From sequence record PZ445488.1: a stretch of DNA of 64,000 nt; one strand, written 5' to 3'. The notes under the pieces were generated by a model, which did not search any database, was not told the origin of the DNA, and saw only the letters and a program-made list of their open reading frames with translations. Position 1 is the first letter of the stretch, and every line of letters begins with the position of its first letter. The translations under genes and the position numbers were made by a program. Of this stretch, positions 3,068-63,983 are shown in pieces. This DNA comes from a phage.

Positions 3068-4059
3068 TATTGAACCTTATTAATATAAGTTAACAGCTCT
3101 TTAGTTTGTTCCCAACTGATGCACGCATCGGTAACGGAAACGCCATAGGACATATTATCAGAAATTTTTTGATTTCCTTCATGTAGGAACGATTCTATCA
3201 TAATTCCTTTGACCAAATCATTAGCTGCTAAATTTTTACCAATACCAATTTGATTGCTATAATGCCCATCAGCGTTTGCATGGCTACAGTCAACCATTAC
3301 ATAATGATTCAGACCTACTGCCCTTGCTTTGTTAGAAGCTTCTTGAATATCAGAAGAATGATAGTTCGGGCCGTTGGTCCCGCCACGCAATACGATATGC
3401 GTATTCTGATTACCTTCAGCTTCAACAATGCCTACAGTACCATCGACGTCCATACCCATATACCGATGAGGCCAGGCGGCACTATACATCGCGTCTGTAG
3501 CTACTTTAATAGAACCATTGGTTGCGTTCTTAAAGCCTACGCACATCGGTAGACCTGAAGCAATTTCACGATGTGTCTGACTTTCAGTCGTACGGGCGCC
3601 AATAGCAACCCATGAGAAAATACCAGAAAGATACTTAATCGTGAATGGGTCTAATACTTCAGTTGCTAATGGAAGTCCCATACGTAGAAGTTTACGACAC
3701 AATGTTCGTGCAACTATAAGACCGTGGTTCATATCAAAACTTCCGTCAAGATATGGATCATTTACAAGACCTTTCCAACCTACGGTAGTTCGAGGCTTTT
3801 CAAAATAAACGCGCATCACTAACAGAACATTAGGAAGACGAGTTTGAAGTTCAGCCAGACGTTTGCCGTATTCAACAGCAGCAATAGGGTCATGAATTGA
3901 ACAAGGACCTACAACAATAAGTTTGCGTGGGTCTTCACCGTTCATAATCGAATTAACTTGTTCGCGATGAGAAGCCACTTGTGATGCGTAAGCTTCCGAC
4001 AAAGGAATAATCTCAGCCAGTTCTTTTGGAGAAATAAGTTTTCCGACGACAGGTAACAT
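3067..4059 (-). CDS. 3-deoxy-D-arabino-heptulosonate-7-phosphate (DAHP) synthase, AroG/AroF/AroH class I type
   Basis: 330 aa; LIVVGPCSIHD, RVYFEKPRTTVGWKGL, GARTTESQTHRE, CSHAN, IESFLHEGNQ and VTDAC motifs align with E. coli AroG catalytic residues. Confidence 0.85.
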   Translation of the reverse strand: MLPVVGKLISPKELAEIIPLSEAYASQVASHREQVNSIMNGEDPRKLIVVGPCSIHDPIAAVEYGKRLAELQTRLPNVLLVMRVYFEKPRTTVGWKGLVNDPYLDGSFDMNHGLIVARTLCRKLLRMGLPLATEVLDPFTIKYLSGIFSWVAIGARTTESQTHREIASGLPMCVGFKNATNGSIKVATDAMYSAAWPHRYMGMDVDGTVGIVEAEGNQNTHIVLRGGTNGPNYHSSDIQEASNKARAVGLNHYVMVDCSHANADGHYSNQIGIGKNLAANDLVKGIMIESFLHEGNQKISDNMSYGVSVTDACISWEQTKELLTYINKVQ

Positions 4060-4179
4060 AACAATCCTTAGGAGATATAAACAGATTCTGATTCAACAAT
4101 ACCTTTAACCGGATTAGACAGGCTAAGTTGGTAGTGCTCAGATTTATGACCATTCTCGATAGTAATGAGATAGCTCTCA

Positions 4180-4416
4180 TTATAGTGTTCCATATACTCG
4201 AGTTGCTTCAACAAGACCATCACTGCCTAATTTAAGATTAGTAATTTGGTCACCATCTTTAGGATTAACGATTATGAGAAAAGAACGTGGAGATTCTTGA
4301 ATAACTCGTAATGTTGCATCCTGGAAACGTTCAGACACTTTATTGATGAGTGCTTGAGCAAATTCTTTTACTTTAATCTGAAATTCGTGTACTGTAATTG
4401 GGTTTTCACTTAGCAT
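4180..4416 (-). CDS. hypothetical protein
   Basis: 78-aa ORF in early orientation. Confidence 0.35.
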   Translation of the reverse strand: MLSENPITVHEFQIKVKEFAQALINKVSERFQDATLRVIQESPRSFLIIVNPKDGDQITNLKLGSDGLVEATRVYGTL

Positions 4417-4476
4417 TTCTATTTCCTCATTTGTTGGTAGAGTTATAGTATCACAACTCCACCATGTTGTAAACCA

Positions 4477-4752
4477 TTAAATTGCTTTGCATTCAATTTT
4501 TTGTGTACCGAAATTGATATCACATTGGATAACTAAATCACCGTCAAGATCAAATACCACTATGACGTGTGCAGACCCAGGGAGAAGAGTAATAGCAATA
4601 GAATCTACTTGGTCTGGGAGCAAAGCATTGAGTACATGAGTTAGTTGAGCATGAACTCTGAGTTCGGCTGCATTATCAAGCACTTCAAACATATTATTAG
4701 CAATAATCTGACTGAAGACTACCTTTACAATTTCAGAATAAGTTGGGAACAT
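4477..4752 (-). CDS. hypothetical protein
   Basis: 91-aa ORF in early orientation. Confidence 0.35.
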   Translation of the reverse strand: MFPTYSEIVKVVFSQIIANNMFEVLDNAAELRVHAQLTHVLNALLPDQVDSIAITLLPGSAHVIVVFDLDGDLVIQCDINFGTQKIECKAI

Positions 4753-4759
4753 AATTACC

Positions 4760-4984
4760 TCAGTGTACAGTATTTACTTTAACTCGAACAACAAATCGCT
4801 CGGTCGGTTCACCTACAGGAACGAACTCTACATGATATTCGCCTTTGTAACGAGTATTCAGATCATTACGAATTCCTGCGAGTTTGTTTATTAATGTAGG
4901 ACTCATATTAAGTCCCACTAGTTTACGAAGCATTTTGTATGCTTCATCTTCGATTTCATGATGTTTATCGTACATAGTTTTCAT
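4760..4984 (-). CDS. hypothetical protein
   Basis: 74-aa ORF in early orientation. Confidence 0.35.
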   Translation of the reverse strand: MKTMYDKHHEIEDEAYKMLRKLVGLNMSPTLINKLAGIRNDLNTRYKGEYHVEFVPVGEPTERFVVRVKVNTVH

Positions 4985-5155
4985 TTAACCATTCAATTGC
5001 CTGGTCGACGTTATCAAATATACCACCGTCCAAACGTTCTTCATGCTCATAGTCCAGCACATCAATACCGAACTGTCCATTTACTAAAGGCCAGGCAACA
5101 AACAAATATTCTTTATGCCGTTCAATGGCCTCAATCACTTCATATAATCGTTTCA

Positions 5156-5156
<1 letters not shown>
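4965..5156 (-). CDS. hypothetical protein
   Basis: 63-aa ORF whose start abuts the pseT stop. Confidence 0.35.
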
Positions 5157-6242
<1,086 letters not shown>

Positions 6243-38631: not shown

Positions 38632-40845
38632 TTATTTGGCTGCTTCCACAGCCTTCATGAATTTAACGATTTGAGCGACTTGTTCTTTAGAAAGAGTACC
38701 ACGTCGTCCCATGTAGTCTGACACAATATGATAATTGGTTTCGAATTCAATAACCATTTTATCATCATTATCGTAAGCATTATCTTTAAGCTTATCGAAA
38801 ATTTTAGCACACAATTCTAACTTCTTATTCAGGTCTGTATTAGTAGCACCTGCGAATCGATTCCATCCCCAACGATTATTTACTGTTGAGAGTTTTGCAA
38901 AGTCTTTACTGATTTCTTTGTTCTTAGAGCTAAAATACTTACTAAGGAAGTTAAGCTCTTCATTACGAGTAATATGATTCAAATAAGGCTGTGCTCTACG
39001 ACTTGGTGATACATACTCATCATAATCTACTTTATCGATTAGCGTAATATAGTCATTAATTGATTTTTCGAACAAGCATTCTACTTCACCAAGTTTACGA
39101 ACTTTCTTAGCAATCTGTGGACGAACTACAGTGAACTCTTTAATACCTGACAAATCAGCAATACGGGTCAAGAAATTGGAGTCATAGTTCAACCAACCTT
39201 TATCTGCGTCAAGACATTCAGCATTAGAACGATTACGAACTATAGCATAACCTTGGATTTCATCTGCTTCACTTGCCGGAATAAAGAGGTCTTCTGATAC
39301 CCAAACATCGTTTTCATTCTTAAAGAATCGATGAGCACTTGGGGATTTAGGACGAGGCTCATTAGTCCGTTTCCTGACTTCAATCCATGGCTTAACGATT
39401 TGTAAAAGCTCTGAAGTCTTGTACATGTTAATGTTGTCGCCATCAAAGATAACTTTAAGGCGTTCCAGAAGTTTCATTGCATCTTCGTCTGTAGGGTCAA
39501 CGAATAGTACGCTTTTACCAAAACCGCGTGGAACTTTACCGGTTAATTTAACCTCGTCTTTAGACATTTCAATTGAATTAAGAGCTCGCATTAATGGAAC
39601 GCGTCCCTTAACGTCGTCAATAACAATTTCAACGTTTTTAATGTTAATGCCAATCAGGCTGTTAATTGAAATAGTTGATGATGAGCTACCACTTTCACGA
39701 ATACGACGAAGACGAGGGGATTCAACGATATCGTATACGACGCCAAGATTACACCACTCAGGCCCCATTTTAAAACGTTTGTACAACTCAGAATAAGTTA
39801 GTTGTTCTTTAGAGTATTTCAGTGATTCAATATTAGACCCGGCCTTTTCCATGTATTTACGAGCGGTATAGCCAAGAGAATCAATTTCACGGAACACATG
39901 ACGTGGGTATTTACAATCAATCCATTTCTTAGAATCTTCAGCGAACAATTTAGCATCGATTTCTGCAACGCGTTTATGGATATTTGCTACCGTACGTTTA
40001 TCAAATGACAATGCTTCACGAGACGGAGCTACATCTAGTTCACCCATAGGGAATTTAATATAAGCTGTAGTGCATCGTGTCATCATCCATGTTTGTTCTT
40101 TAATAACACTTCCGATTGGATATACAATACCACCGTAAACAGCCATGATATTACCGCGTTCACCCCATGGAGCTTCCTTGGCCAAATATACATCATCAAA
40201 TTCAGGGAAGTATTTAATATCTTTAACACCACGAACTTCTGCAATATCACCTAGAGGACGCATAACATATGCAATTTCGGATGCGAACTTTTCAAAATCT
40301 TCCGGGTTAACCGGTACGACTACTTCTACACCAGTACGGTCATCAGGACCCATCTTATCTACAAAGGTCGGCTTAATTTGTGGACCCGTATCATCTTGGT
40401 AGATTACGTAACCACGAACTTCGCCGTTGTGATAAGACGTAAGGTTAAACGTATCGGTATATGCTAGCGGAGCTTTAGAGCCGAGTCCGAATCCACCGAT
40501 GAAATCGTTACTCGATGTTTTAGTTGAAGCAAAATATGAGTTATAGATTCCTGGCTCTTCGTCATTACCTCGAATGGTGAAATCGCTCATACCAGGACCA
40601 AAGTCTCGAACTACAAAACGTGGGTCTAAACGACCTGGAGCCTGAACAATAAACTTATCAGTGCAACCGTTAAGAATTTGTCCATCGATACAGTTTGTAA
40701 TTAATTCACGTACACAAGCCAATTCTTTGTTTGTATAAAGGTCATTAGACAAAATCTTATAAACTTTGCTATTGCCTTGAATAGTGAATGCTGTGCTCTT
40801 ACCACCGGAACCAATAATCGTTTCTTTAGCAGTTTCAATAATCAT
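38632..40845 (-). CDS. rIIA: rIIA protein
   Basis: 737 aa; N-terminal GHKL-type ATPase-like region; T4 RIIA-like. Confidence 0.9.
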   Translation of the reverse strand: MIIETAKETIIGSGGKSTAFTIQGNSKVYKILSNDLYTNKELACVRELITNCIDGQILNGCTDKFIVQAPGRLDPRFVVRDFGPGMSDFTIRGNDEEPGIYNSYFASTKTSSNDFIGGFGLGSKAPLAYTDTFNLTSYHNGEVRGYVIYQDDTGPQIKPTFVDKMGPDDRTGVEVVVPVNPEDFEKFASEIAYVMRPLGDIAEVRGVKDIKYFPEFDDVYLAKEAPWGERGNIMAVYGGIVYPIGSVIKEQTWMMTRCTTAYIKFPMGELDVAPSREALSFDKRTVANIHKRVAEIDAKLFAEDSKKWIDCKYPRHVFREIDSLGYTARKYMEKAGSNIESLKYSKEQLTYSELYKRFKMGPEWCNLGVVYDIVESPRLRRIRESGSSSSTISINSLIGINIKNVEIVIDDVKGRVPLMRALNSIEMSKDEVKLTGKVPRGFGKSVLFVDPTDEDAMKLLERLKVIFDGDNINMYKTSELLQIVKPWIEVRKRTNEPRPKSPSAHRFFKNENDVWVSEDLFIPASEADEIQGYAIVRNRSNAECLDADKGWLNYDSNFLTRIADLSGIKEFTVVRPQIAKKVRKLGEVECLFEKSINDYITLIDKVDYDEYVSPSRRAQPYLNHITRNEELNFLSKYFSSKNKEISKDFAKLSTVNNRWGWNRFAGATNTDLNKKLELCAKIFDKLKDNAYDNDDKMVIEFETNYHIVSDYMGRRGTLSKEQVAQIVKFMKAVEAAK

Positions 40846-40857
40846 ATTTTTCTCTCA

Positions 40858-41058
40858 TCACAAGTTACGTTTAAAAATTTCTGCTACTTCAAGAAGTTCT
40901 TCTTTAGTAGCTGTATCGGTTTGTATTTTATATCGAATTTCTTTAAAGCGTTCTTTAAAGGACTCTGCTGACTCTATATCAAAAAATCTTTGGATAAGCC
41001 GGAATTCCCGGAGCACTGCTTTATCAAAAAGTTCCAAGTCCACGTTATATGTTCTCAT
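40858..41058 (-). CDS. hypothetical protein (rIIA.1 position)
   Basis: 66-aa ORF. Confidence 0.4.
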   Translation of the reverse strand: MRTYNVDLELFDKAVLREFRLIQRFFDIESAESFKERFKEIRYKIQTDTATKEELLEVAEIFKRNL

Positions 41059-41150: not shown

Positions 41151-42251
41151 TTACGCTGTGAAGATTTTATCCCACATCGCAACAACTGCATCTCGGTTAT
41201 ACTTCTTCCATACTGCTTCAGCACGTTTAACTCGAGCTTCGTATGTGTCAGTGAATTCTAATACAGCTTTTGCGTAAAGCGCAACTACTTCTTTCTTAGG
41301 AGTAGAGGAATCAATTTCTACACGCACAGTATCTGGGTCATATTCGAATGTCGCGTGCGGATAATCCTTAAAAACTAACTGAATTACAGGGACACCTTTA
41401 GAGATGGCTTCAATAGAACTATTCTCTACCGTACCCGTGTCAGGACACGTATTGATAAGTGCTTTAGCTGTTTTAAGACGTTCCATGATTTCACTGTGTG
41501 GAGCATCAATAATAACAGGATACTTAGCCGGTGGTGCCCATTTACTAGGACAGTATCCTACACCATTTTCGCCTAGTGCTTTAATCGCTTCAAGAGCAAC
41601 ATCAGTACGACGCATTTTAGTGTCATAACGTTGTGCACTAATAATCAGATCAGTCGCCGGAAGAACTTCAGGTTTATCATTCAAACAAATAACCGGATAA
41701 TCTTCGGCTTCAAACAACGGATTTGCTCGCCAATAATCATAATCAATTTTGTCAGTCAGACCTGAAGTCATATAACAATATTTGCGTTCAAATTCACGGA
41801 AGGCTTTAGTAGGAGCATAACTCTTACCACCGTTCTTATGAATTTGAATAGTCTGGTCCCAAATTTGAACAATGCCACGAGATACCGGTTCAAATGGTGT
41901 TGCCATAAAATTCTTATGAACTTTAGAGAGACCCGCGTCTTTAATTGCCTGAACGGTTAGTTTGGTCGGTTCCATAGTAACAACAAAATCGTATTCATGG
42001 ATGCCGGCTAGTTCAACAATCTTACGAGCCATAGTATAACTCATACCTAGACTGAATTTAGTCAGATGACCAACAGGATGATGATTAACCTTCCAATCAC
42101 CAAATGTGTCATTATCAAAGCCGATATAATCAATATCAGCACCGATAGAAACTAAATATTTCAACACATTTAAATGTACTGCTTCAAGACCACCTTGTAC
42201 ACGTTCTGGGTTAAATGGGACTGCGCGAGATGGGATAAACATAACTTTCAT
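41151..42251 (-). CDS. GT-B-fold glycosyltransferase (GT4-like); candidate DNA hydroxymethylcytosine sugar transferase
   Basis: 366 aa; N-terminal MKVMFIPSRAVPFNPERVQGGLEAVHLNVLKYL resembles the GT4 pattern; C-terminal TGTVENSSIEAISKGVPVIQ resembles the EX7E/EAMAxGxPVI donor-binding motif; no similarity to T4 alpha- or beta-GT. Confidence 0.6.
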   Translation of the reverse strand: MKVMFIPSRAVPFNPERVQGGLEAVHLNVLKYLVSIGADIDYIGFDNDTFGDWKVNHHPVGHLTKFSLGMSYTMARKIVELAGIHEYDFVVTMEPTKLTVQAIKDAGLSKVHKNFMATPFEPVSRGIVQIWDQTIQIHKNGGKSYAPTKAFREFERKYCYMTSGLTDKIDYDYWRANPLFEAEDYPVICLNDKPEVLPATDLIISAQRYDTKMRRTDVALEAIKALGENGVGYCPSKWAPPAKYPVIIDAPHSEIMERLKTAKALINTCPDTGTVENSSIEAISKGVPVIQLVFKDYPHATFEYDPDTVRVEIDSSTPKKEVVALYAKAVLEFTDTYEARVKRAEAVWKKYNRDAVVAMWDKIFTA

Positions 42252-42277: not shown

Positions 42278-42295
42278 AAGCTCCCGAAGGAGCTT
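42278..42295 (-). terminator. tetraloop hairpin overlapping the gene 39 stop codon
   Basis: aagcucc-uucg-ggagcuu in minus-strand RNA. Confidence 0.45.
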
Positions 42296-44114
42296 AGGAC
42301 ATCCATTCTTTACGAAGTTCTGAATCATCACCCAACAACATTTCAAAGAGTTCTTTCCAATTTTCAGGAAGTTTAACTACGTCGTACACAGGGTTCTGAA
42401 TCATTTCACGATACTCTGACTTTTCAAGGGAGCCCAATCCCTTGATGTATCGAATACTATGCTTAGGCAGCGTATCTTTAACTTCTTCATACTCAGCTAC
42501 AGTATAAAACCATTTTTGAGTTTTGCCAATTTGTGCAATAATTACAGGTGTTTTAACAAAGCGAATACGTCCTTGTTCAAACAATTCAGGCCAATTACTA
42601 AAGAAAGCAAGCAAAGCAGGATAAATACTTCCAAGGCCGTCATGATCGGCATCGGTCATAATTGCAATATTACGATAGTTCGTATTCTCTGCCTTTTCAC
42701 CAAGAATAAGACCTGTGATAGCACAGATATCAAAGAGCTCTTTGTTCTTCATCATATCAGCATATGACATACCCCAGCTATTCATCACCTTACCACGTAA
42801 TGGGAATCCGCCGTGTAGTTCACGGTCACGAACATCAATGAGATAACCAATTGCCGAATCACCTTCTGTTAAGAACAATGTCGTATCTGCATCTTTACCA
42901 CATTGGTTAGCTTTAATATGCTTATGAACCTTAGCTTTAGTTGCCTTTTTAGCTGCTTTAGTTTCTGCGGCCTTTTCTGCTGCCAATTTACGAGCTAATG
43001 CTGCTTCAATTATAGGCATTAAAACTGCTTCAGAATTCAAAATATTTTTTGCCAATTTTTTGGTATCTAATTTAATATGCGTCCGAATTTCGCCATAAGG
43101 ACTTGTTAAACGCTCTTTGGTTTGGGAATCAAAACGAAGGTTCTTCATTCCACGAACGAACATTAAGAGAGTGAGACATTCCTTGATGCGCGCTTTAGTC
43201 ACGTCGATTTTATATTTGCGTTTAATAGCCGGAATTAATTCTTCGCAAATGTCGTCCATCACACATTCAATGTGATGACCGCCATTTTTGGTATGGATGT
43301 TATTAACATAAGTTAAATGACGGAAGCCATCTGGTGACCGACCAATGGCAATAGAGCATCCATCTTGTTCTTGAATGACGGTCTCTTCATCAAATTGTTT
43401 AGCAAACTTCTTAAAGTTACCTTTAATCCTTTTGCCATTAAATTTAAATTCAATACCAGGATAAACGACTGCCAATGTTTGGAGCCGGTCTATAGTAATA
43501 TCTTGGTATATTTTTTCAAATTGATTCATTTCAAAATGAGAGAAATCAGGAATAAACTCGACCTTAGTCCCGTTGTTTTTAGACGGCTTAGATTTCCAAG
43601 AAATATTATCAGCATTATTAGAACAATTAACTGTCAATTCGTTTTTACCATCTGAAGTAGTGCCAACAAAAGAGACAGAAAAAATATTTGTTAATGAAGA
43701 ACCGACACCGTTTTGTCCACCCGTAACACGTTCTTTGTCGTCACCAAAGTTGCCACCAGCTTTTGTACGTGTCCACGCCGCAACTGGTCCTGGAATTTCT
43801 TCTCCTTCAGGAGTAATAACTGTTTCTTGAGGAATACCTCGTCCATTATCTTCAACAGTCACTTTATTAGAATTTAAATCAATACTAACAGAAATTTTAT
43901 TAGCATATTTGAAATTGGTTCGAATAGCTTCATCTACCGAGTTGTCAATAATTTCATCAATTAATTTGAGAACACCTGCAACATATTTAACCTTTTTAAA
44001 TTCACCGAATAGGAAACGTTCTTGTTCTTCATTGGCAACACTTCCAATATACATGCCAGGACGCTTCAAACAATGCTCTTTATCAGATAGCATTTCAATT
44101 TTATTATCAATCAT
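42294..44114 (-). CDS. 39: DNA topoisomerase II large subunit, fused 39/60 form; start set at MIDNKIEM
   Basis: 606 aa continuous ORF; GyrB-like ATPase and Toprim regions; longer than T4 gp39 alone, consistent with the unsplit form. Confidence 0.9.
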   Translation of the reverse strand: MIDNKIEMLSDKEHCLKRPGMYIGSVANEEQERFLFGEFKKVKYVAGVLKLIDEIIDNSVDEAIRTNFKYANKISVSIDLNSNKVTVEDNGRGIPQETVITPEGEEIPGPVAAWTRTKAGGNFGDDKERVTGGQNGVGSSLTNIFSVSFVGTTSDGKNELTVNCSNNADNISWKSKPSKNNGTKVEFIPDFSHFEMNQFEKIYQDITIDRLQTLAVVYPGIEFKFNGKRIKGNFKKFAKQFDEETVIQEQDGCSIAIGRSPDGFRHLTYVNNIHTKNGGHHIECVMDDICEELIPAIKRKYKIDVTKARIKECLTLLMFVRGMKNLRFDSQTKERLTSPYGEIRTHIKLDTKKLAKNILNSEAVLMPIIEAALARKLAAEKAAETKAAKKATKAKVHKHIKANQCGKDADTTLFLTEGDSAIGYLIDVRDRELHGGFPLRGKVMNSWGMSYADMMKNKELFDICAITGLILGEKAENTNYRNIAIMTDADHDGLGSIYPALLAFFSNWPELFEQGRIRFVKTPVIIAQIGKTQKWFYTVAEYEEVKDTLPKHSIRYIKGLGSLEKSEYREMIQNPVYDVVKLPENWKELFEMLLGDDSELRKEWMS

Positions 44115-44790
44115 TAGATTTTCTCTCAAATTGCATGACTATATTTTTGTATGAACCTTCCGGAAATCCACGTTTAACGCTTTCTTTAGCAAATTTACCG
44201 ACCTTTGGTTTATCCAATTCTAACCATAATTTATATAAAGAAGATTCATATTCCCATACAGGACTTTTACGATTTTTAAGCCCACACTTTATAAGCGCTT
44301 CCTTTGTATGTTTCTTATTATAAAATGGATTGTTTTTGCCACTCATTGCTTTAGAATGTTCAGGGCGCTTAATTCCATACATCGGATTAAGATCGCCTTT
44401 CTTGATAATTGATTGTAGTTCAATAGTTTCTTCAGAGTGATTGTGTCCATAAAATGGATTTAACTCTTTTGAAACATCCATACCAAAGCACCCATCGACT
44501 GTGGCATAAGACATGTTGAAAAATTTTTCAGATTTAACCACATTATGCAATTTCTGGTAATACAACTCACAAAACGTCGCTTCTTCACGTGTATCAAATT
44601 CGCCAATAATACATGAATCAAATAAATGAGGATTATCTTTTATCTCTTTATCATAAATTTGTTTATATTTTTTCGACTTTACCGTACCATGATAGTAACT
44701 GTTTGTATGTTTATCAAGATAAGTAGACCCTATATAAAACGGTGGCAACTTATCGCCTGTGTATATTGTTAAGTATGTTATGTATTTCAT
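44107..44790 (-). CDS. putative homing endonuclease-like protein (degenerate GIY-YIG N-terminus with NUMOD3-type repeats)
   Basis: 227 aa; N-terminal YLTIYTGDKLPPFYIGST; repeats NPFYGHNHSEETIE, NPMYGIKRPEHSKAMSGKNNPFYNKKHTKEA resemble NUMOD3 modules of Seg/Tev-type endonucleases. Confidence 0.5.
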   Translation of the reverse strand: MKYITYLTIYTGDKLPPFYIGSTYLDKHTNSYYHGTVKSKKYKQIYDKEIKDNPHLFDSCIIGEFDTREEATFCELYYQKLHNVVKSEKFFNMSYATVDGCFGMDVSKELNPFYGHNHSEETIELQSIIKKGDLNPMYGIKRPEHSKAMSGKNNPFYNKKHTKEALIKCGLKNRKSPVWEYESSLYKLWLELDKPKVGKFAKESVKRGFPEGSYKNIVMQFERKSND

Positions 44791-44825
44791 AAAGGTATTC
44801 TATCATCCGAAATCTAAAGCAAAAA

Positions 44826-44837
44826 GGGCCGAAGCCC
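44826..44837 (-). terminator. short hairpin gggc-cgaa-gccc
   Basis: inverted repeat directly after stop of ORF 44838..45260. Confidence 0.35.
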
Positions 44838-45260
44838 TTATTTAAATTTAATTTTCTGAAGTGCATCAATTGCAGCCAGACGCCCTTGTTCACTTTTAAC
44901 TGTAATGACCACATCACCTGATACGATCACCGAACCATCAACAAATTCTATAGAGCCTTTTTTGAAATCAACTGACGTAGGTTCCGGAACTTCTTCAAAG
45001 AATTTAAATTCTGCACCATAAAGCAGAATATCACCTTGCATACTATGAATAGTTCGGCCATAATCGCCTACGGCTTCTACAGCAATAACCGAAACGCCGT
45101 AACCAATCATCTCTTCCACAATAAAATCTTTGGACAATAAAGTAGTATGCAGATTAGTATTAAGACGTTTACCAGTCGTATTAAGAATTCTCAAGAAATT
45201 ATCTTCTTGTCCTTTGATAATACGATATTTCTTACCAACTTCAAAACCTTTAAAAGCCAT
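44838..45260 (-). CDS. hypothetical protein
   Basis: 140-aa ORF. Confidence 0.45.
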   Translation of the reverse strand: MAFKGFEVGKKYRIIKGQEDNFLRILNTTGKRLNTNLHTTLLSKDFIVEEMIGYGVSVIAVEAVGDYGRTIHSMQGDILLYGAEFKFFEEVPEPTSVDFKKGSIEFVDGSVIVSGDVVITVKSEQGRLAAIDALQKIKFK

Positions 45261-46726: not shown

Positions 46727-47146
46727 TTATGCGAAAGCAGCTGGGCTATATTTTTTAATTTGGAATTCAGGAACTACCATGAACTGACCAGCGAAAACGA
46801 TGTTATAAAGCTTAACACCATCTTCTACCCAACGGTCGCTAATAAATCCGGCGATTTGCTTAGTTTTCCATGGCGTTCCATCAGTTGCCGCAGCAATAGT
46901 GAATTCATGGTCTTTTTCAACAGAAACTGATCTGCATAGTCCCCATTTGAACGCTTTTTCTTCTGGCTCAATGAACTGGCTTGAGACGTAGCCAATATTA
47001 CCATTAGCATCACGAACTTTAACTTGGTTACGACCAAAAACCGGATCACTCACAGAAAGAACTTCAACCAACTTCCCGGCAACTTTAGAGCGAGAAGCAA
47101 CAGATACATATACGTAATCACCTGTAGAGAGATTTACAATATTCAT
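46727..47146 (-). CDS. paralogue family member 1 (unknown function)
   Basis: 139 aa; shares SRSKVAGKLVEV and C-terminal FISDRWVEDGVKLYNIVFAG motifs with the next two ORFs. Confidence 0.55.
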   Translation of the reverse strand: MNIVNLSTGDYVYVSVASRSKVAGKLVEVLSVSDPVFGRNQVKVRDANGNIGYVSSQFIEPEEKAFKWGLCRSVSVEKDHEFTIAAATDGTPWKTKQIAGFISDRWVEDGVKLYNIVFAGQFMVVPEFQIKKYSPAAFA

Positions 47147-47155
47147 AATAATTCC

Positions 47156-47641
47156 TTAAGCTTTACGAGGAGACACATAGCGAGTGATTTCAGATTCTTT
47201 AACAACTCTGAAGTCACCTAAGAATATGATATTGTATAACTTTTCACCATCTTCAACCCATTGGTCACTAATGAAGCCGCACATAGTATCAGTTTTGCTT
47301 GGATAACCGTATTCATCGATGAAGTCAAATTCTTTATCAGTCTGGAATTCAACGCCTTTGCAAAGGGCCCATTTGAACTGTACATTATGCTCTGTGGATT
47401 CAACTTTTTCTCTTGAAGCAAAAGCACTACTCACAGGCGTTTCCAAGAACTTTGCACGAACATAAGCAAATTTGGTTTCCTGTGTCCCAAAACTAGGAAT
47501 AATACGAACTTTTACCTCAGAATCTTCATCTTTAACGCCTTCTTTAAGTTGAATACTTACAACTTCGACCAATTTTCCTGCGGCTTTAGAACGAGATTTG
47601 TTAGATACGCGAACGATTTCACCAATAATACCAAGATTCAT
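47156..47641 (-). CDS. paralogue family member 2; start set at MNLGIIGEI
   Basis: 161 aa; SRSKAAGKLVEV ... FISDQWVEDGEKLYNIIFLGDF; promoter lies inside the longer ORF-track version. Confidence 0.55.
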   Translation of the reverse strand: MNLGIIGEIVRVSNKSRSKAAGKLVEVVSIQLKEGVKDEDSEVKVRIIPSFGTQETKFAYVRAKFLETPVSSAFASREKVESTEHNVQFKWALCKGVEFQTDKEFDFIDEYGYPSKTDTMCGFISDQWVEDGEKLYNIIFLGDFRVVKESEITRYVSPRKA

Positions 47642-47668
47642 AATTTCTCTCTCTTTGTTTAAATTGAA

Positions 47669-47700
47669 TTCATTATACTCCATCCATCCTTGGATATACA
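47669..47700 (-). promoter_or_regulatory. early-type promoter (TGTATA-N17-TATAAT) for paralogue 2
   Basis: shares core attatactcca-ccatccttgg with 48228..48260. Confidence 0.45.
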
Positions 47701-47703
47701 ACA

Positions 47704-48198
47704 TTAATTAAGGATATTAACCACAGCACTACGTGGAACTACACTAAAATCACCTGCATGAACAACGTTCAGAAGTTCAACACCGTCTTCAATCCACTGG
47801 TCAGTTACCCATCCATTTACTGGACCTGCGAACGGGCGTCGAATTGAAACATATTTACACAGCAAATCAGTAGGCTCAATAGGCTTAATCAGAGTACCGT
47901 ACATACAAGCGATATCCATATCAATACAGATGTCTTTAACGGGTTCTACTTCTTCAATCAACAGTTCAAAGTCTGTGCTTGGAAGGGCGGTAGTAGAAAT
48001 TGTACCATATGAATTTTTAATTTCTAAGAATAACCAAGGGCCTTCAGCTTGTTTGATGAAGTTAACAATAGTGAAACTATTGCCTTGAGTGGCACCTAAA
48101 ATTTCACAAAACTTTTCGTAAGCTCGCACTGAAGCACTGTACCAGTTGATTTGTTTTTCGTCTTTCAGGATGTAAGTAGCCGTAGTATTGATATTCAT
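47704..48198 (-). CDS. paralogue family member 3
   Basis: 164 aa; C-terminal WVTDQWIEDGVELLNVVHAGDFSVVP matches the family motif. Confidence 0.5.
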   Translation of the reverse strand: MNINTTATYILKDEKQINWYSASVRAYEKFCEILGATQGNSFTIVNFIKQAEGPWLFLEIKNSYGTISTTALPSTDFELLIEEVEPVKDICIDMDIACMYGTLIKPIEPTDLLCKYVSIRRPFAGPVNGWVTDQWIEDGVELLNVVHAGDFSVVPRSAVVNILN

Positions 48199-62533: not shown

Positions 62534-63082
62534 TTAACGAGCCCATTTGATGATTTCTGTAATCAAACCATTACGTTCGCTTGCATTAAATCCTATAACT
62601 TTGTTAGCACCATCATGATTAAGTAATTGATATGTTTGGATTTTGTTATGAATTGCAAACTCTTCAAAATGTGAAATGACTGTATTAAAACCGAATGAAG
62701 ACAAAGTAATAAGGTCGTCTTCAAAACTTTCAGTCATTTCGTTACGTGTTAAAATAATTGTGAACACATCATGGTTTTGGCAAAGACGAACATAATCCTG
62801 CTCATAAACATCAAGAACAGAGTCCGCATCTTGACGAATACGTCCATAAACCCAGTTACTAATATATCCACGGTCTAACAGATAAATCTTAGTAGGGTCT
62901 AAATAATTCAACATCGTTTCGAAACAGCCAACTTCATTTCGAGACTTAACATCGAAACGTCCATCAACTGTTCGTTTAGGGAAATCAATCTTTACATATC
63001 TTTCACTAATTTCCATTATGTCATTAATGAAAGTTGTTTTACCGGCATTATCCGGGCCATCTACTAAAATAATTTTAGCCAT
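62534..63082 (-). CDS. P-loop nucleotide/nucleoside kinase-like protein (thymidylate-kinase-like) at the T4 beta-gt locus
   Basis: 182 aa; P-loop VDGPDNAGKTT and LLDRGYIS (DRY-like) motif. Confidence 0.55.
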   Translation of the reverse strand: MAKIILVDGPDNAGKTTFINDIMEISERYVKIDFPKRTVDGRFDVKSRNEVGCFETMLNYLDPTKIYLLDRGYISNWVYGRIRQDADSVLDVYEQDYVRLCQNHDVFTIILTRNEMTESFEDDLITLSSFGFNTVISHFEEFAIHNKIQTYQLLNHDGANKVIGFNASERNGLITEIIKWAR

Positions 63083-63083
63083 T

Positions 63084-63983
63084 TTATTCCTCGATTACGA
63101 CATCTTCGTATTTAGGTATATTATACGGCGAAGAAATTAAAGCGTTAAAGTAGATGAACTCACCAAGACCTGGATGGAATACTTCTTCAGGATTTTCGAA
63201 ATATTGAATCTTCGGGCGTCCTTTAAGAATTTTATAGTACTCAGTTTTAGTTGGTTTAAAAATTCGAATCAGCGCTTCTTCAGGATACTTATTTCTGTCG
63301 AAGCTATTATTTGGATCGGTTATATAAAGCGGTTGGCCTAATTGAATTGCACATTCAACCACTTGTTCAAAACGATAGCACGGGTCACTAATTCGAAATG
63401 GATGAAAAATACCATCTAGATGAATAGGAGCCAAATCACCTACAAGACGCTGCATGATGGAAGGACGTATAACTTTCTGAGTTACGATAATCTTATTACC
63501 ATCTGCACCGGCGTTAACCAGCACTTCTTTTTGACGTTCATTCAACACAGTAGTTTGAAGTGAACGATTAACCGACAACATATCGGTTTTTAAGAATTCG
63601 TCAATATAAAAACGTGGTTTATTAGGGTCTGCCGTGATATTGAAATTGAATTCTACATCAAAAGCGCCGTCATATCCAGTGATATCTGTTATTAGAAAAT
63701 CACAATCATAATAAGCAATTAATGAATCAACCACAAATTCATTTTCAGACCAGAAATATTTACGAGTGTTATACGCGTTATCTTTATACCATAATGGAAC
63801 AAACTTAAATTCCGGGAAAAGACGTTCACATTCTTTAATATCAGATGCATTACGTGGATATGTAATCACATCACCTGGATTAGCACGGTGCAAATGAAGT
63901 TGGAAGTTGCCATCCTTAAGGATAGCATACTGTCCAGTTTCATAAGACCGCATACTCAAGATTGGTACGCGGAAAATAGCCAT
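63084..63983 (-). CDS. hypothetical 299-aa protein at the T4 beta-gt locus
   Basis: complete ORF, no similarity to T4 beta-GT or dCMP hydroxymethylase recognised. Confidence 0.5.
   Translation of the reverse strand: MAIFRVPILSMRSYETGQYAILKDGNFQLHLHRANPGDVITYPRNASDIKECERLFPEFKFVPLWYKDNAYNTRKYFWSENEFVVDSLIAYYDCDFLITDITGYDGAFDVEFNFNITADPNKPRFYIDEFLKTDMLSVNRSLQTTVLNERQKEVLVNAGADGNKIIVTQKVIRPSIMQRLVGDLAPIHLDGIFHPFRISDPCYRFEQVVECAIQLGQPLYITDPNNSFDRNKYPEEALIRIFKPTKTEYYKILKGRPKIQYFENPEEVFHPGLGEFIYFNALISSPYNIPKYEDVVIEE

Follow-up and report, generated by a model that had tools for sequence, protein, structure and literature searches.

The DNA analysed here is a 64,000-nucleotide stretch of a phage (sequence record PZ445488.1), which we call the window. 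Its topoisomerase locus carries an uninterrupted gene 39, a glycosyltransferase (GT) gene on the downstream side, and, on the upstream side, a predicted GIY-YIG endonuclease gene that abuts a foreign 5' portion of gene 39. We are highly confident that the best overall explanation of this locus combines an ancestral unsplit gene 39, a GT cassette of the genus Mosigvirus, and a chimera linked to the endonuclease. The part of this reading that concerns the unsplit gene, the lack of a translational bypass, and the RB69-type GT is correct but ordinary and already known, and RB69 carries an annotation of the complete arrangement, which has also been treated in the literature.

The window is placed by its sequence in an RB69-like phage of the genus Mosigvirus, within the HX01/CEV1 lineage. 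It shows 98% nucleotide identity with HX01, the available CEV1 fragments are 100% identical to it, and its gene order is that of RB69. The order rIIA, rIIA.1, ORF003c, 39 is the same in RB69, HX01, and Shf125875 (NC_004928; NC_018855; NC_025437), and the RB69-type locus of Mosigvirus also matches the window in gene sizes (606 and 366 aa), intergenic hairpin, and spacers (Table 1). In T4 the neighbours of the locus are shared as well, with rIIA.1 on the downstream side and 39.2, goF, and cef on the other. One difference from RB69 and most Mosigviruses is an extra GIY-YIG gene of 684 nt upstream of gene 39, which is also found in HX01.

Table 1. Features of the topoisomerase locus and of the partner glycosyltransferase gene (positions in the window).
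Feature	Position	Strand	Basis
rIIA	38632–40845	minus	Collinear with the HX01 and RB69 rIIA annotation
rIIA.1	40858–41058	minus	Pfam T4_RIIA1, E = 2e-30; 100% identical to RB69 rIIA.1
GT-B/GT4 glycosyltransferase, 366 aa, homologue of RB69 ORF003c (gp3)	41151–42251	minus	98.9% identity; PDB 9IQZ/9IR0; PHROG 8302
Terminator-like hairpin with UUCG tetraloop and T-rich tail	42278–42295	minus	Terminator scan and sequence; identical in RB69
Gene 39 ('60plus39', Topo2L), predicted topoisomerase II large subunit, uninterrupted, 606 aa and stop	42294–44114	minus	ORF list, BLASTP, Pfam
Codons 474–606 and stop of gene 39, equivalent of T4 gene 60	42294–42695	minus	T4 gp60 residues 27–159, 86% identity, E = 2e-87
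'Parental' segment of 63 nt with intact Toprim DADHDG motif; place of the ~1.1-kb MobA element in T4	42628–42690	minus	blastn gap
5' block of gene 39 (codons ~1–380, ATPase and transducer), of another allele class than in other Mosigviruses; probable co-conversion tract	42969–44114	minus	Identity drop
Predicted free-standing GIY-YIG (Seg-type) homing endonuclease gene, 227 aa	44107–44790	minus	Its 3' end overlaps the gene 39 start by 8 nt
UUCG hairpin (44824–44839), then MotA-box-like TGCTTTA (44815–44821) and TAGAAT -10 element (44797–44802); probable middle promoter	44797–44839	minus	Terminator scan and sequence
Homologue of RB69 ORF005c, 140 aa	44838–45260	minus	91.5% identical to RB69p005
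Intact 299-aa ORF equivalent to RB69 gp46:47, proposed first DNA arabinosyltransferase	63084–63983	minus	Identity to RB69p047 and RB69p046

Two putative regulatory regions frame the gene. The hairpin located directly 3' of the gene 39 stop codon resembles a terminator and may separate gene 39 from the GT cassette. On the upstream side, the MotA-box-like and -10 elements are spaced by 12 nt, and RB69 shares the sequence of this region as far as the start of the endonuclease gene. By comparison with the consensus of T4 middle promoters, the region is probably a middle promoter, which would now drive both the endonuclease gene and gene 39. In phages lacking the GIY-YIG gene, the immediate upstream neighbour of gene 39 is the ORF005c homologue.

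Gene 39 is a single open reading frame whose 606 codons cover what T4 divides between genes 39 and 60, in agreement with the original prediction made for this locus. Its product has the size and position of RB69p004 and begins with MIDNKIEMLSD, compared with MIKNEIKILSD in T4. The minus-strand frame extends from 42294 to 44129 and would encode 611 aa from a TTG codon. We rejected this start: every homologue starts at the position of the ATG at 44114, which gives 606 aa, and positions 44115–44129 lie inside the endonuclease gene. In BLASTP searches, residues 1–475 matched residues 1–473 of T4 gp39 (76% identity, E = 0), and the following residues, encoded by codons 474–606, matched T4 gp60 (Table 1) and showed 97–100% amino acid identity to their counterparts in RB69 and Shf125875. 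The fused form had been tied to an alignment of the C-terminal ~90 residues with gp60. It stands because the C-terminal residues do align, but the length was underestimated, since the alignment covers 133 residues.

The domains of the product are those of one continuous chain. A GHKL ATPase domain is followed by a transducer domain (the second domain of GyrB), with Pfam matches above the gathering score for both HATPase_c (7.7e-10, aa 51–190) and DNA_gyraseB (5.7e-13, aa 265–386). The matches to Toprim and TOPRIM_C fall slightly under their cutoffs, and the acidic motifs of Toprim can be read in the single chain (LTEGDSAIGY, and MTDADHDG at aa 486–493). The whole product (residues 1–606) aligns with residues 1–604 of T6 gp39 (8YLU_C, E = 0). 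These results identify it as a predicted GyrB/ParE-like subunit of a type IIA topoisomerase, with ATPase, transducer, and Toprim modules. The topoisomerase of T2 and T6 is a two-subunit enzyme (PMC11461880), and its gp39 is a single chain of ~605 aa (8YLU and related cryo-EM entries, PMC11461880), as in the window. T2 and T6 belong to a different genus, and RB32, a Tequatrovirus with a fused gene, has neither a GT nor an endonuclease gene beside gene 39.

Genes 39 and 60 of T4 encode together the same enzyme subunit as gene 39 of the window, and their organisation, with the MobA element and a translational bypass of 50 nt, was reportedly described by Bonocora et al. in 2011. The window differs from T4 by the absence of the split, the extension peptides, the bypass cassette, mobA, and 60.1. 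Two blastn blocks (42300–42627 matching T4 2467–2794, and 42691–44114 matching T4 3911–5328) leave between them only the 63-nt parental segment. By BLASTP, the 43 C-terminal residues of T4 gp39 and the 26 N-terminal residues of gp60 have no counterpart in the window's gene 39. The T4 60.1–mobA segment has no tblastx match anywhere in the window, and a blastn-short search of the whole 64 kb with the T4 bypass cassette returned nothing but chance matches, none longer than 13 nt. The codon of Gly493, GGC (42636–42638), occupies the position of the T4 take-off codon. It lies in a continuous frame (GAC GGC CTT GGA), and Leu-Gly-Ser follows directly. The window shows no 50-nt coding gap with a stop and a hairpin after a GGA take-off codon, no HNH gene mobA inside gene 39, and no split into two Topo2L ORFs with element-derived extensions, the gene being a single ORF. 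The expectation that the locus would lack a bypass element was therefore borne out by the continuous frame and by the lack of any substantial match to the cassette.

The T4 sequences left unmatched, i.e., the 43-aa tail of gp39 and the 26-aa head of gp60, agree with the model proposed for the MobA element, which includes parental genomes lacking the insert (bioRxiv 10.1101/2022.08.31.505936). The 63-nt length of the parental segment agrees with the deletion of 55–75 nt given in the same work, and the window keeps uninterrupted the region where MobA reportedly nicked T2 (bioRxiv 10.1101/2022.08.31.505936).

The fused gene is widespread. A 131-aa probe spanning the junction was continuous in 1,880 of the 1,968 phage records and was covered at 52% in T4. 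The annotations of RB69 and RB32 name the gene '60plus39' or mention the split found in T4. The fused form is therefore no special feature of this genome: it is the ancestral condition and the prevailing one, from which T4 departs through the insertion of the MobA element. The direction of this evolution is one that we infer: the T4 split with its 50-nt bypass would be derived, resulting from the insertion of a ~1.1-kb MobA element into the Toprim-coding region. The element would never have entered the lineage of the window, or would have left no trace in it, so that translation of gene 39 would be ordinary and collinear. One could propose instead that the fused gene is secondary: the MobA/bypass element would have been present in an ancestor and then removed precisely, perhaps through gene conversion with an uninterrupted allele as template. 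We regard this as very improbable. Recombination is rampant at the gene 39 locus, and lineages in which the endonuclease or the bypass disappeared once the element had inserted were reported (bioRxiv 10.1101/2022.08.31.505936), but the window contains no remnant of the C-terminal and N-terminal extensions, and its parental segment is intact. Furthermore, gene 39 is in its 3' third 99–100% identical to RB69-type genes, which are likewise free of the element, and no Mosigvirus record among the matches listed has a split gene. We thus retain the ancestral unsplit state.

The neighbouring gene had been predicted to encode a glycosyltransferase, and this was confirmed. The protein aligns with RB69 ORF003c (RB69p003) over 366/366 aa with 98.9% identity, in the company of the same neighbours, and is near-identical to PDB 9IQZ (E = 1e-248), an entry named 'Glycosyltransferase subfamily 4-like N-terminal domain-containing protein'. 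It has the two Rossmann-like domains of the GT-B fold. There was no match to it in Pfam or NCBIfam, and its identification comes from the comparison with RB69 and the PDB sequence search. A literature search on the PDB code 9IQZ returned only unrelated work. RB69 ORF003c/gp3 is described as a putative beta-arabinosyltransferase 2 (PMC6024577; PMC13326640; PMC13390438), with a proposed role in adding a second arabinose onto arabinosylated 5-hydroxycytosine in DNA (PMC13326640). The window shows no notable difference from this system: the protein is near-identical, the locus is the same, and the partner GT is present. This partner is the 299-aa ORF, whose residues 1–181 are 98.9% identical to RB69p047 and residues 184–299 are 99.1% identical to RB69p046, the split between 46 and 47 in RB69 being a sequencing error (PMC13326640). 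The homologues of RB69 gp45 and gp46:47 lie at 62534–63983, and the counterparts of gp48–55 would fall past the end of the window. The GT next to gene 39 is accordingly a putative second DNA arabinosyltransferase, which would act after the first one, encoded 21 kb away.

Using tblastn, we found the GT in 156 Mosigvirus-type records at identities of at least 90%. Homologues with ~43% identity are present in 56 records of Acinetobacter phages at other genome positions, inside the main modification cluster and away from the topoisomerase gene. The nearest relatives with some experimental study are gp76/gp77 of Acinetobacter phage DLP3. The presence of the GT at the site between the topoisomerase gene and rIIA.1 is confined to Mosigvirus, and in T4 and RB32 this spacer is empty and has 54 nt. 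We compared the spacers of T4, RB32, JS98, RB69, and the window in search of the insertion point and found no recognisable homology between genera. In the Mosigvirus lineage, the GT gene forms an additional one-gene cassette between the stop codon of the topoisomerase gene and rIIA.1.

The original prediction went further and placed the GT in the site of gene 60, which it would have replaced together with the endonuclease of that locus. The idea comes naturally from the map, since the GT lies between the homologue of gene 39 and rIIA.1, where T4 has 60, 60.1, and mobA. It is already refuted by the gp60 alignment and the RB32 map, and we give it almost no credence: the equivalent of gp60 is kept whole as codons 474–606, the GT is in the spacer between the topoisomerase gene and rIIA.1, and its presence there is limited to Mosigvirus. 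RB32 combines a fused gene with a mere 54-nt spacer before rIIA.1 and has no GT, which shows that a phage can have the unsplit gene irrespective of whether it carries the GT. The endonuclease gene of the T4 locus is also mobA and not, as had been stated, mobE, which is located between nrdA and nrdB (PMC2988022, Table 1).

The gene overlapping the start of gene 39 encodes a 227-aa protein with a predicted GIY-YIG catalytic fold. Across 50 homologues, residues Y6, Y19-I20-G21, E75, and N92 show little or no variation, whereas we saw no invariant Arg. The protein had no match to Pfam PF01541 even at E-values up to 1, and the match to TIGR01453 (2.7e-4) was under the cutoff, while NUMOD3 was matched in three stretches (4.8e-11). 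The N-terminal GIY-YIG-like fold, NUMOD3 linker, and C-terminal helical DNA-binding region resemble those of SegA-G, SegH, and I-TevI (PMC2988022), from which the protein differs by a catalytic domain too divergent for PF01541. Like other Seg-type genes (PMC2988022), this one is promoterless, overlaps its neighbour, has a patchy distribution, and adjoins a divergent tract in a conserved gene. Its site, between ORF005/39.1 and 39, has no endonuclease gene in T4. Among the matches listed, nine Mosigvirus records carry the gene and about 150 have the locus without it. The site is also occupied in Bp7, TG1, and phages of Klebsiella, Enterobacter, Proteus, and Providencia, and the 8-nt overlap with gene 39 is kept in Bp7 and TG1. 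Such sporadic presence at a fixed site, with divergence in the adjoining conserved gene, is typical of homing endonucleases, and we class the product as a predicted Seg-type homing endonuclease. At the other end of gene 39, phages of the AV115 group have an HNH-type endonuclease gene, and in AV115 itself the adjoining 3' end of gene 39 is locally divergent.

The divergence next to the GIY-YIG gene was analysed in a sample of 11 genomes. Compared with RB69, Shf125875, and JK45, the 5' block has a nucleotide identity of 63–82%, down from about 99%, and the last dense cluster of mismatches ends at gene nt 1112–1153 (window ~42969–43003). Over aa 1–372, identity is 67–68% to RB69 and Shf125875, 85% to Bp7 (Dhakavirus), 83% to VR26, and 81% to TG1. 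The same mosaic is observed within Dhakavirus when Bp7 is compared with JS98, with a breakpoint at gene nt ~1100–1150. We searched the phage collection for a donor of the endonuclease gene and gene 39 block outside Mosigvirus with at least 90% nucleotide identity and found none; the best match was Bp7, at 76.9%. Phages lacking the GIY-YIG gene can also have a gene 39 of this allele class, and VR26 has an endonuclease VII-type ORF at the position in question.

These observations suggest that the 5' block probably arose by co-conversion with the homing endonuclease gene upstream of it, the association between the two being correlative. The sub-lineage would have gained the GIY-YIG gene together with ~1.1 kb of the donor's gene 39 (codons ~1–380), and repair initiated by the endonuclease would have created the mosaic. 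The topoisomerase would therefore be a chimera, with a foreign ATPase/transducer and a native Toprim module. We lean, by a little, towards a more general scenario in which the GIY-YIG gene and the first ~1.1 kb of gene 39 travel as a unit between T4-like genera, grafting the donor's ATPase/transducer onto the recipient's Toprim at a fixed and conserved junction near codons 372–385. The two deep classes of N-terminal alleles would then be kept apart by homing and by the resistance of target sites to cleavage, and not by phylogeny.

A simpler possibility is that the divergent 5' two-thirds result from ordinary homologous recombination, or from selection on the ATPase domain (e.g., to escape a host factor), and that the endonuclease gene is merely adjacent. 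The alleles of the same class in VR26 and other phages without the GIY-YIG gene fit this explanation, and so does the position of the breakpoint, since the sequence there is highly conserved and recombination of any kind would be resolved in it. It accounts less well for a foreign block that begins exactly at the endonuclease gene and extends in one direction into gene 39, for the 8-nt overlap maintained in Bp7 and TG1, and for the independent recurrence of both the association and the breakpoint in Dhakavirus (Bp7 versus JS98). The concurrence of an HNH-type gene and local divergence at the 3' end in AV115 also speaks against it. Recombination without a role of the endonuclease is thus rather unlikely, even if it deserves serious consideration.

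The junction had been proposed to be a hotspot for gene exchange, and the flanks of gene 39 indeed vary greatly between related phages. The GIY-YIG gene at the start of gene 39 and the ~1.1 kb of foreign sequence adjoining it add to this picture. The finding of a fused gene has by itself little weight, because this state is normal outside T4, is annotated in RB69 and RB32, and is represented by the solved structure from T6. Its main value lies in the correct annotation of the locus: collinear translation of gene 39, an uninterrupted region of MobA insertion, and the presence of the two putative DNA arabinosyltransferase genes in the window. More notable than the unsplit gene are the endonuclease gene and the foreign block of gene 39. 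Across T4-like phages, three endonuclease insertion points surround or split gene 39, and the upstream endonuclease gene is tied to the wholesale exchange of the ATPase module in two genera. This may be of modest use for the study of homing endonucleases and phage mosaicism, as a natural system to analyse co-conversion tracts and the function of chimeric topoisomerases. If the proposed scenario is true, an endonuclease would have driven the exchange of a domain within an essential enzyme, and this at a locus famed for the MobA/bypass element.

The large subunit of topoisomerase II is encoded in the window by one uninterrupted gene 39, and the ORF list agrees with the original prediction of a single ORF of 606 codons. 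The protein contains GHKL ATPase, GyrB transducer, Toprim and TOPRIM_C domains (Pfam), has sub-threshold matches to GyrB/ParE models spread over its whole length (NCBIfam), and matches PHROG 543 ('DNA topoisomerase II large subunit') over residues 1-606 (E = 9e-284). It aligns end to end with the T6 gp39 chain of a solved structure (8YLU_C). We took T4 gp39 and gp60 from NC_000866, removed the bypass, and compared them with this protein by BLASTP. T4 gp39 1-473 matches residues 1-475 at 76% identity, and gp60 27-159 matches residues 474-606 at 86% (E = 2e-87). Because of the latter match, the C-terminus does align with gp60 as predicted, but the equivalent stretch has 133 residues rather than about 90.

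Two parts of the T4 proteins, the final 43 aa of gp39 and the initial 26 aa of gp60, have no BLASTP counterpart in the window protein; in the model of the MobA element, the homing-endonuclease insert that splits the T4 gene, such extensions are element-derived (bioRxiv 10.1101/2022.08.31.505936). At the DNA level, T4 2467-2794 aligns with window 42300-42627 and T4 3911-5328 with 42691-44114. The unaligned gap between the two T4 blocks implies that 63 nt (42628-42690) occupy the place where T4 carries the inserted element of ~1.1 kb. The reading frame is unbroken across the Toprim DADHDG motif, and Leu-Gly-Ser directly follows Gly493 (GGC, 42636-42638). The T4 60.1-mobA segment gave no tblastx match in the window. 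The continuous frame past Gly493, together with the fact that matches to the T4 bypass cassette in the entire window are at chance level (13 nt at most), bears out the predicted lack of a translational bypass element, which is expected for a fused gene.

The region was assigned to Mosigvirus by megablast, with 98% identity to HX01 over 4.5 kb, ~150 more RB69-like records covering 84% of the query, and CEV1 fragments at 100% identity. RB69 has the identical order (rIIA, rIIA.1, ORF003c of 366 aa, gene 39 of 606 aa, ORF005c, 39.2, goF, cef), and its annotation already remarks on the T4 insertion splitting the large subunit; Shf125875 and RB32 use the gene name '60plus39'. A 131-aa junction probe (window residues 430-560) that bridges the T4 split point aligns without a break in 1880 of 1968 phage records, T4 covering only 52% of it, and the T2 and T6 enzymes are described as two-subunit (PMC11461880). 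Taken together, these annotations, the probe and the T2 and T6 enzymes indicate that the fused gene 39 is the ancestral and prevailing state. The topoisomerase/glycosyltransferase feature is the ordinary RB69-like arrangement, already annotated and published. The observation was borne out, and its interpretation only partly.

Features of the locus and its surroundings (L004, L005, L009 and L014 are comparison loci in AV115, JK45, VR26 and JS98, in their own coordinates)
Feature	Position	Strand	Remark
Glycosyltransferase (GT) ORF, 366 aa	41151-42251	-	
UUCG-tetraloop hairpin, T-rich tail	42278-42295	-	Directly after gene 39 stop (terminator scan)
Gene 39 ORF	42294..44129	-	ATG at 44114, 606 codons (ORF list)
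Predicted GIY-YIG/NUMOD3 homing endonuclease gene, 227 aa	44107-44790	-	Three NUMOD3 motifs (Pfam)
TGCTTTA box and TAGAAT element	44797-44821		12 nt apart
UUCG-tetraloop hairpin, T-rich tail	44824-44839	-	Directly after ORF005 stop (terminator scan)
Three tandem paralogous ORFs	46727-48198	-	139, 182, 164 aa
RB69p045 homologue, thymidylate-kinase-like	62534-63082	-	Adjoins 299-aa ORF
RB69 gp46:47 homologue, intact, 299 aa	63084-63983	-	RB69p047 + RB69p046; proposed first arabinosyltransferase
AV115-group second endonuclease gene, HNH + NUMOD3, 265 aa	L004 2995-3792	-	Between gene 39 stop and GT
JK45 extra ORF, 136 aa	L005 1852-2262	-	Between GT and rIIA.1
VR26 ORF, 252 aa, endonuclease VII-type	L009 4622-5380	-	Upstream of gene 39
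JS98 gene 39-rIIA.1 'intergenic' stretch, 588 nt	L014 2437-3024		Unannotated

The neighbouring gene is indeed a glycosyltransferase: its product is 98.9% identical to RB69 ORF003c and differs very little from PDB 9IQZ/9IR0 ('Glycosyltransferase subfamily 4-like N-terminal domain-containing protein'). It had been placed in the site that holds gene 60 and mobE in T4. This is incorrect on both counts, because the equivalent of gene 60 is retained within gene 39, at its 3' end, and the T4 locus contains 60, 60.1 and mobA, mobE lying between nrdA and nrdB (PMC2988022 Table 1). The GT lies between the topoisomerase stop codon and rIIA.1, in a spacer that is empty (54 nt) in T4 and also in the fused-gene Tequatrovirus RB32; fusion state and GT presence are independent characters.

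Thomas et al. 2018 proposed that ORF003c is the RB69 arabinosyltransferase and has a GT-B fold (PMC6024577). A 2026 NAR paper revised the modified base to arabinosylated 5-hydroxycytosine and proposed gp46:47 to be the first transferase and gp3 (ORF003c) the second (PMC13326640). The intact 299-aa ORF supports the published view that the RB69 46/47 split is a sequencing error; the window ends within this arabinosylation cluster. By tblastn, the GT is found at ≥90% identity in 156 Mosigvirus-type records and at ~43% in 56 Acinetobacter phage records. The Acinetobacter homologues lie at about 35-40 kb in records starting at the usual origin, and in Lazarus, the one such phage examined, no GT adjoins the topoisomerase gene.

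The junction is an exchange hotspot, as proposed, and a broader one: the topoisomerase-rIIA.1 interval, the upstream flank and the gene interior all vary. The interval holds two small ORFs in Dhakavirus, Gaprivervirus and Gelderlandvirus, the GT in Mosigvirus, the GT and, in tandem, a partial copy that repeats the GT's C-terminal 130 aa (99% identity) in JK45, and the GT and an HNH endonuclease gene abutting gene 39 in the AV115 group of Mosigvirus. The latter gene shares 1 nt with the gene 39 stop, its catalytic N-terminus (first 71 aa) is 59% identical to S16 MobA, and the AV115 gene 39 is locally divergent at its 3' end (92% aa over residues 494-606). The JS98 stretch resembles, by position and length, a Bp7 stretch with two annotated small ORFs (66 and 107 aa). 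The gene itself is interrupted by the MobA element in T4 and S16. Upstream, T4, RB32, RB69 and JS98 have 39.1 or ORF005 alone, and the window, HX01, Bp7, TG1 and many Klebsiella, Enterobacter, Proteus and Providencia phages have a GIY-YIG gene. In VR26 (Gaprivervirus), that position is taken by an ORF whose C-terminus carries an endonuclease VII domain (5e-18, Pfam), suggesting that nucleases of different families substitute for one another at the site upstream of gene 39.

The GIY-YIG gene and the start of gene 39 have 8 nt in common. On the minus strand, the ORF005 hairpin is closely followed by a TGCTTTA box and then a TAGAAT element; by the T4 middle-promoter consensus, we take the former as MotA-box-like and the latter as a -10 element. 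Together they look like a candidate MotA-dependent middle promoter, from which transcription would now pass the endonuclease gene and reach gene 39. The hairpin/box sequence is common to RB69 up to the start of the endonuclease gene, which begins 7 nt past the -10 element with no obvious ribosome-binding site before it. Separately, the paralogues at 46727-48198 have a common C-terminal motif (GFISD[RQ]WVEDG.KLYN..F.G.F.VV); two of the three are annotated as MotB-like in HX01, and T4 has a single motB there.

RB69, Shf125875 and JK45 lack the endonuclease gene, and both flanks otherwise continue unchanged. Sliding identity to these phages is 95-100% from rIIA to ~43000, falls to 63-82% in the first ~1.1 kb of gene 39 (42969-44114), up to the endonuclease gene, and is back at 93-100% upstream of it. 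The mismatch density shifts at gene nt ~1112-1153 (window ~42969-43003). Over residues 1-372, the protein shares 67-68% identity with RB69 and Shf125875, against 81% with TG1, 83% with VR26 and 85% with Bp7 (Dhakavirus). Its residues 385-470 show no difference from RB69 (100% identity), and the gene beyond the divergent 5' part is 97-100% RB69-like; the large subunit is therefore a chimera. Within Dhakavirus, identity between Bp7 (endonuclease gene present; L007, its comparison locus, 3500-5288) and JS98 (endonuclease gene absent) is 87-98% in the surroundings of the locus and drops to 64-80% across the first ~1.1 kb of gene 39, next to the endonuclease gene, with the same breakpoint position; the N-terminal module of JS98 falls in one group with that of RB69 (84%). 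The mosaic pattern recurs there independently.

The simplest reading is that the endonuclease initiated double-strand-break repair, which would have co-converted the neighbouring gene 39 from a donor of another lineage and given the topoisomerase an ATPase/transducer module of foreign origin. We infer such co-conversion from the mosaic. Gene 39 alleles of the same class also occur without the GIY-YIG gene, so plain recombination, without endonuclease action, stays a live rival. The module swap in gene 39, linked to the endonuclease gene, adds a new case to a known phenomenon and is the only part of these observations that might repay more work.
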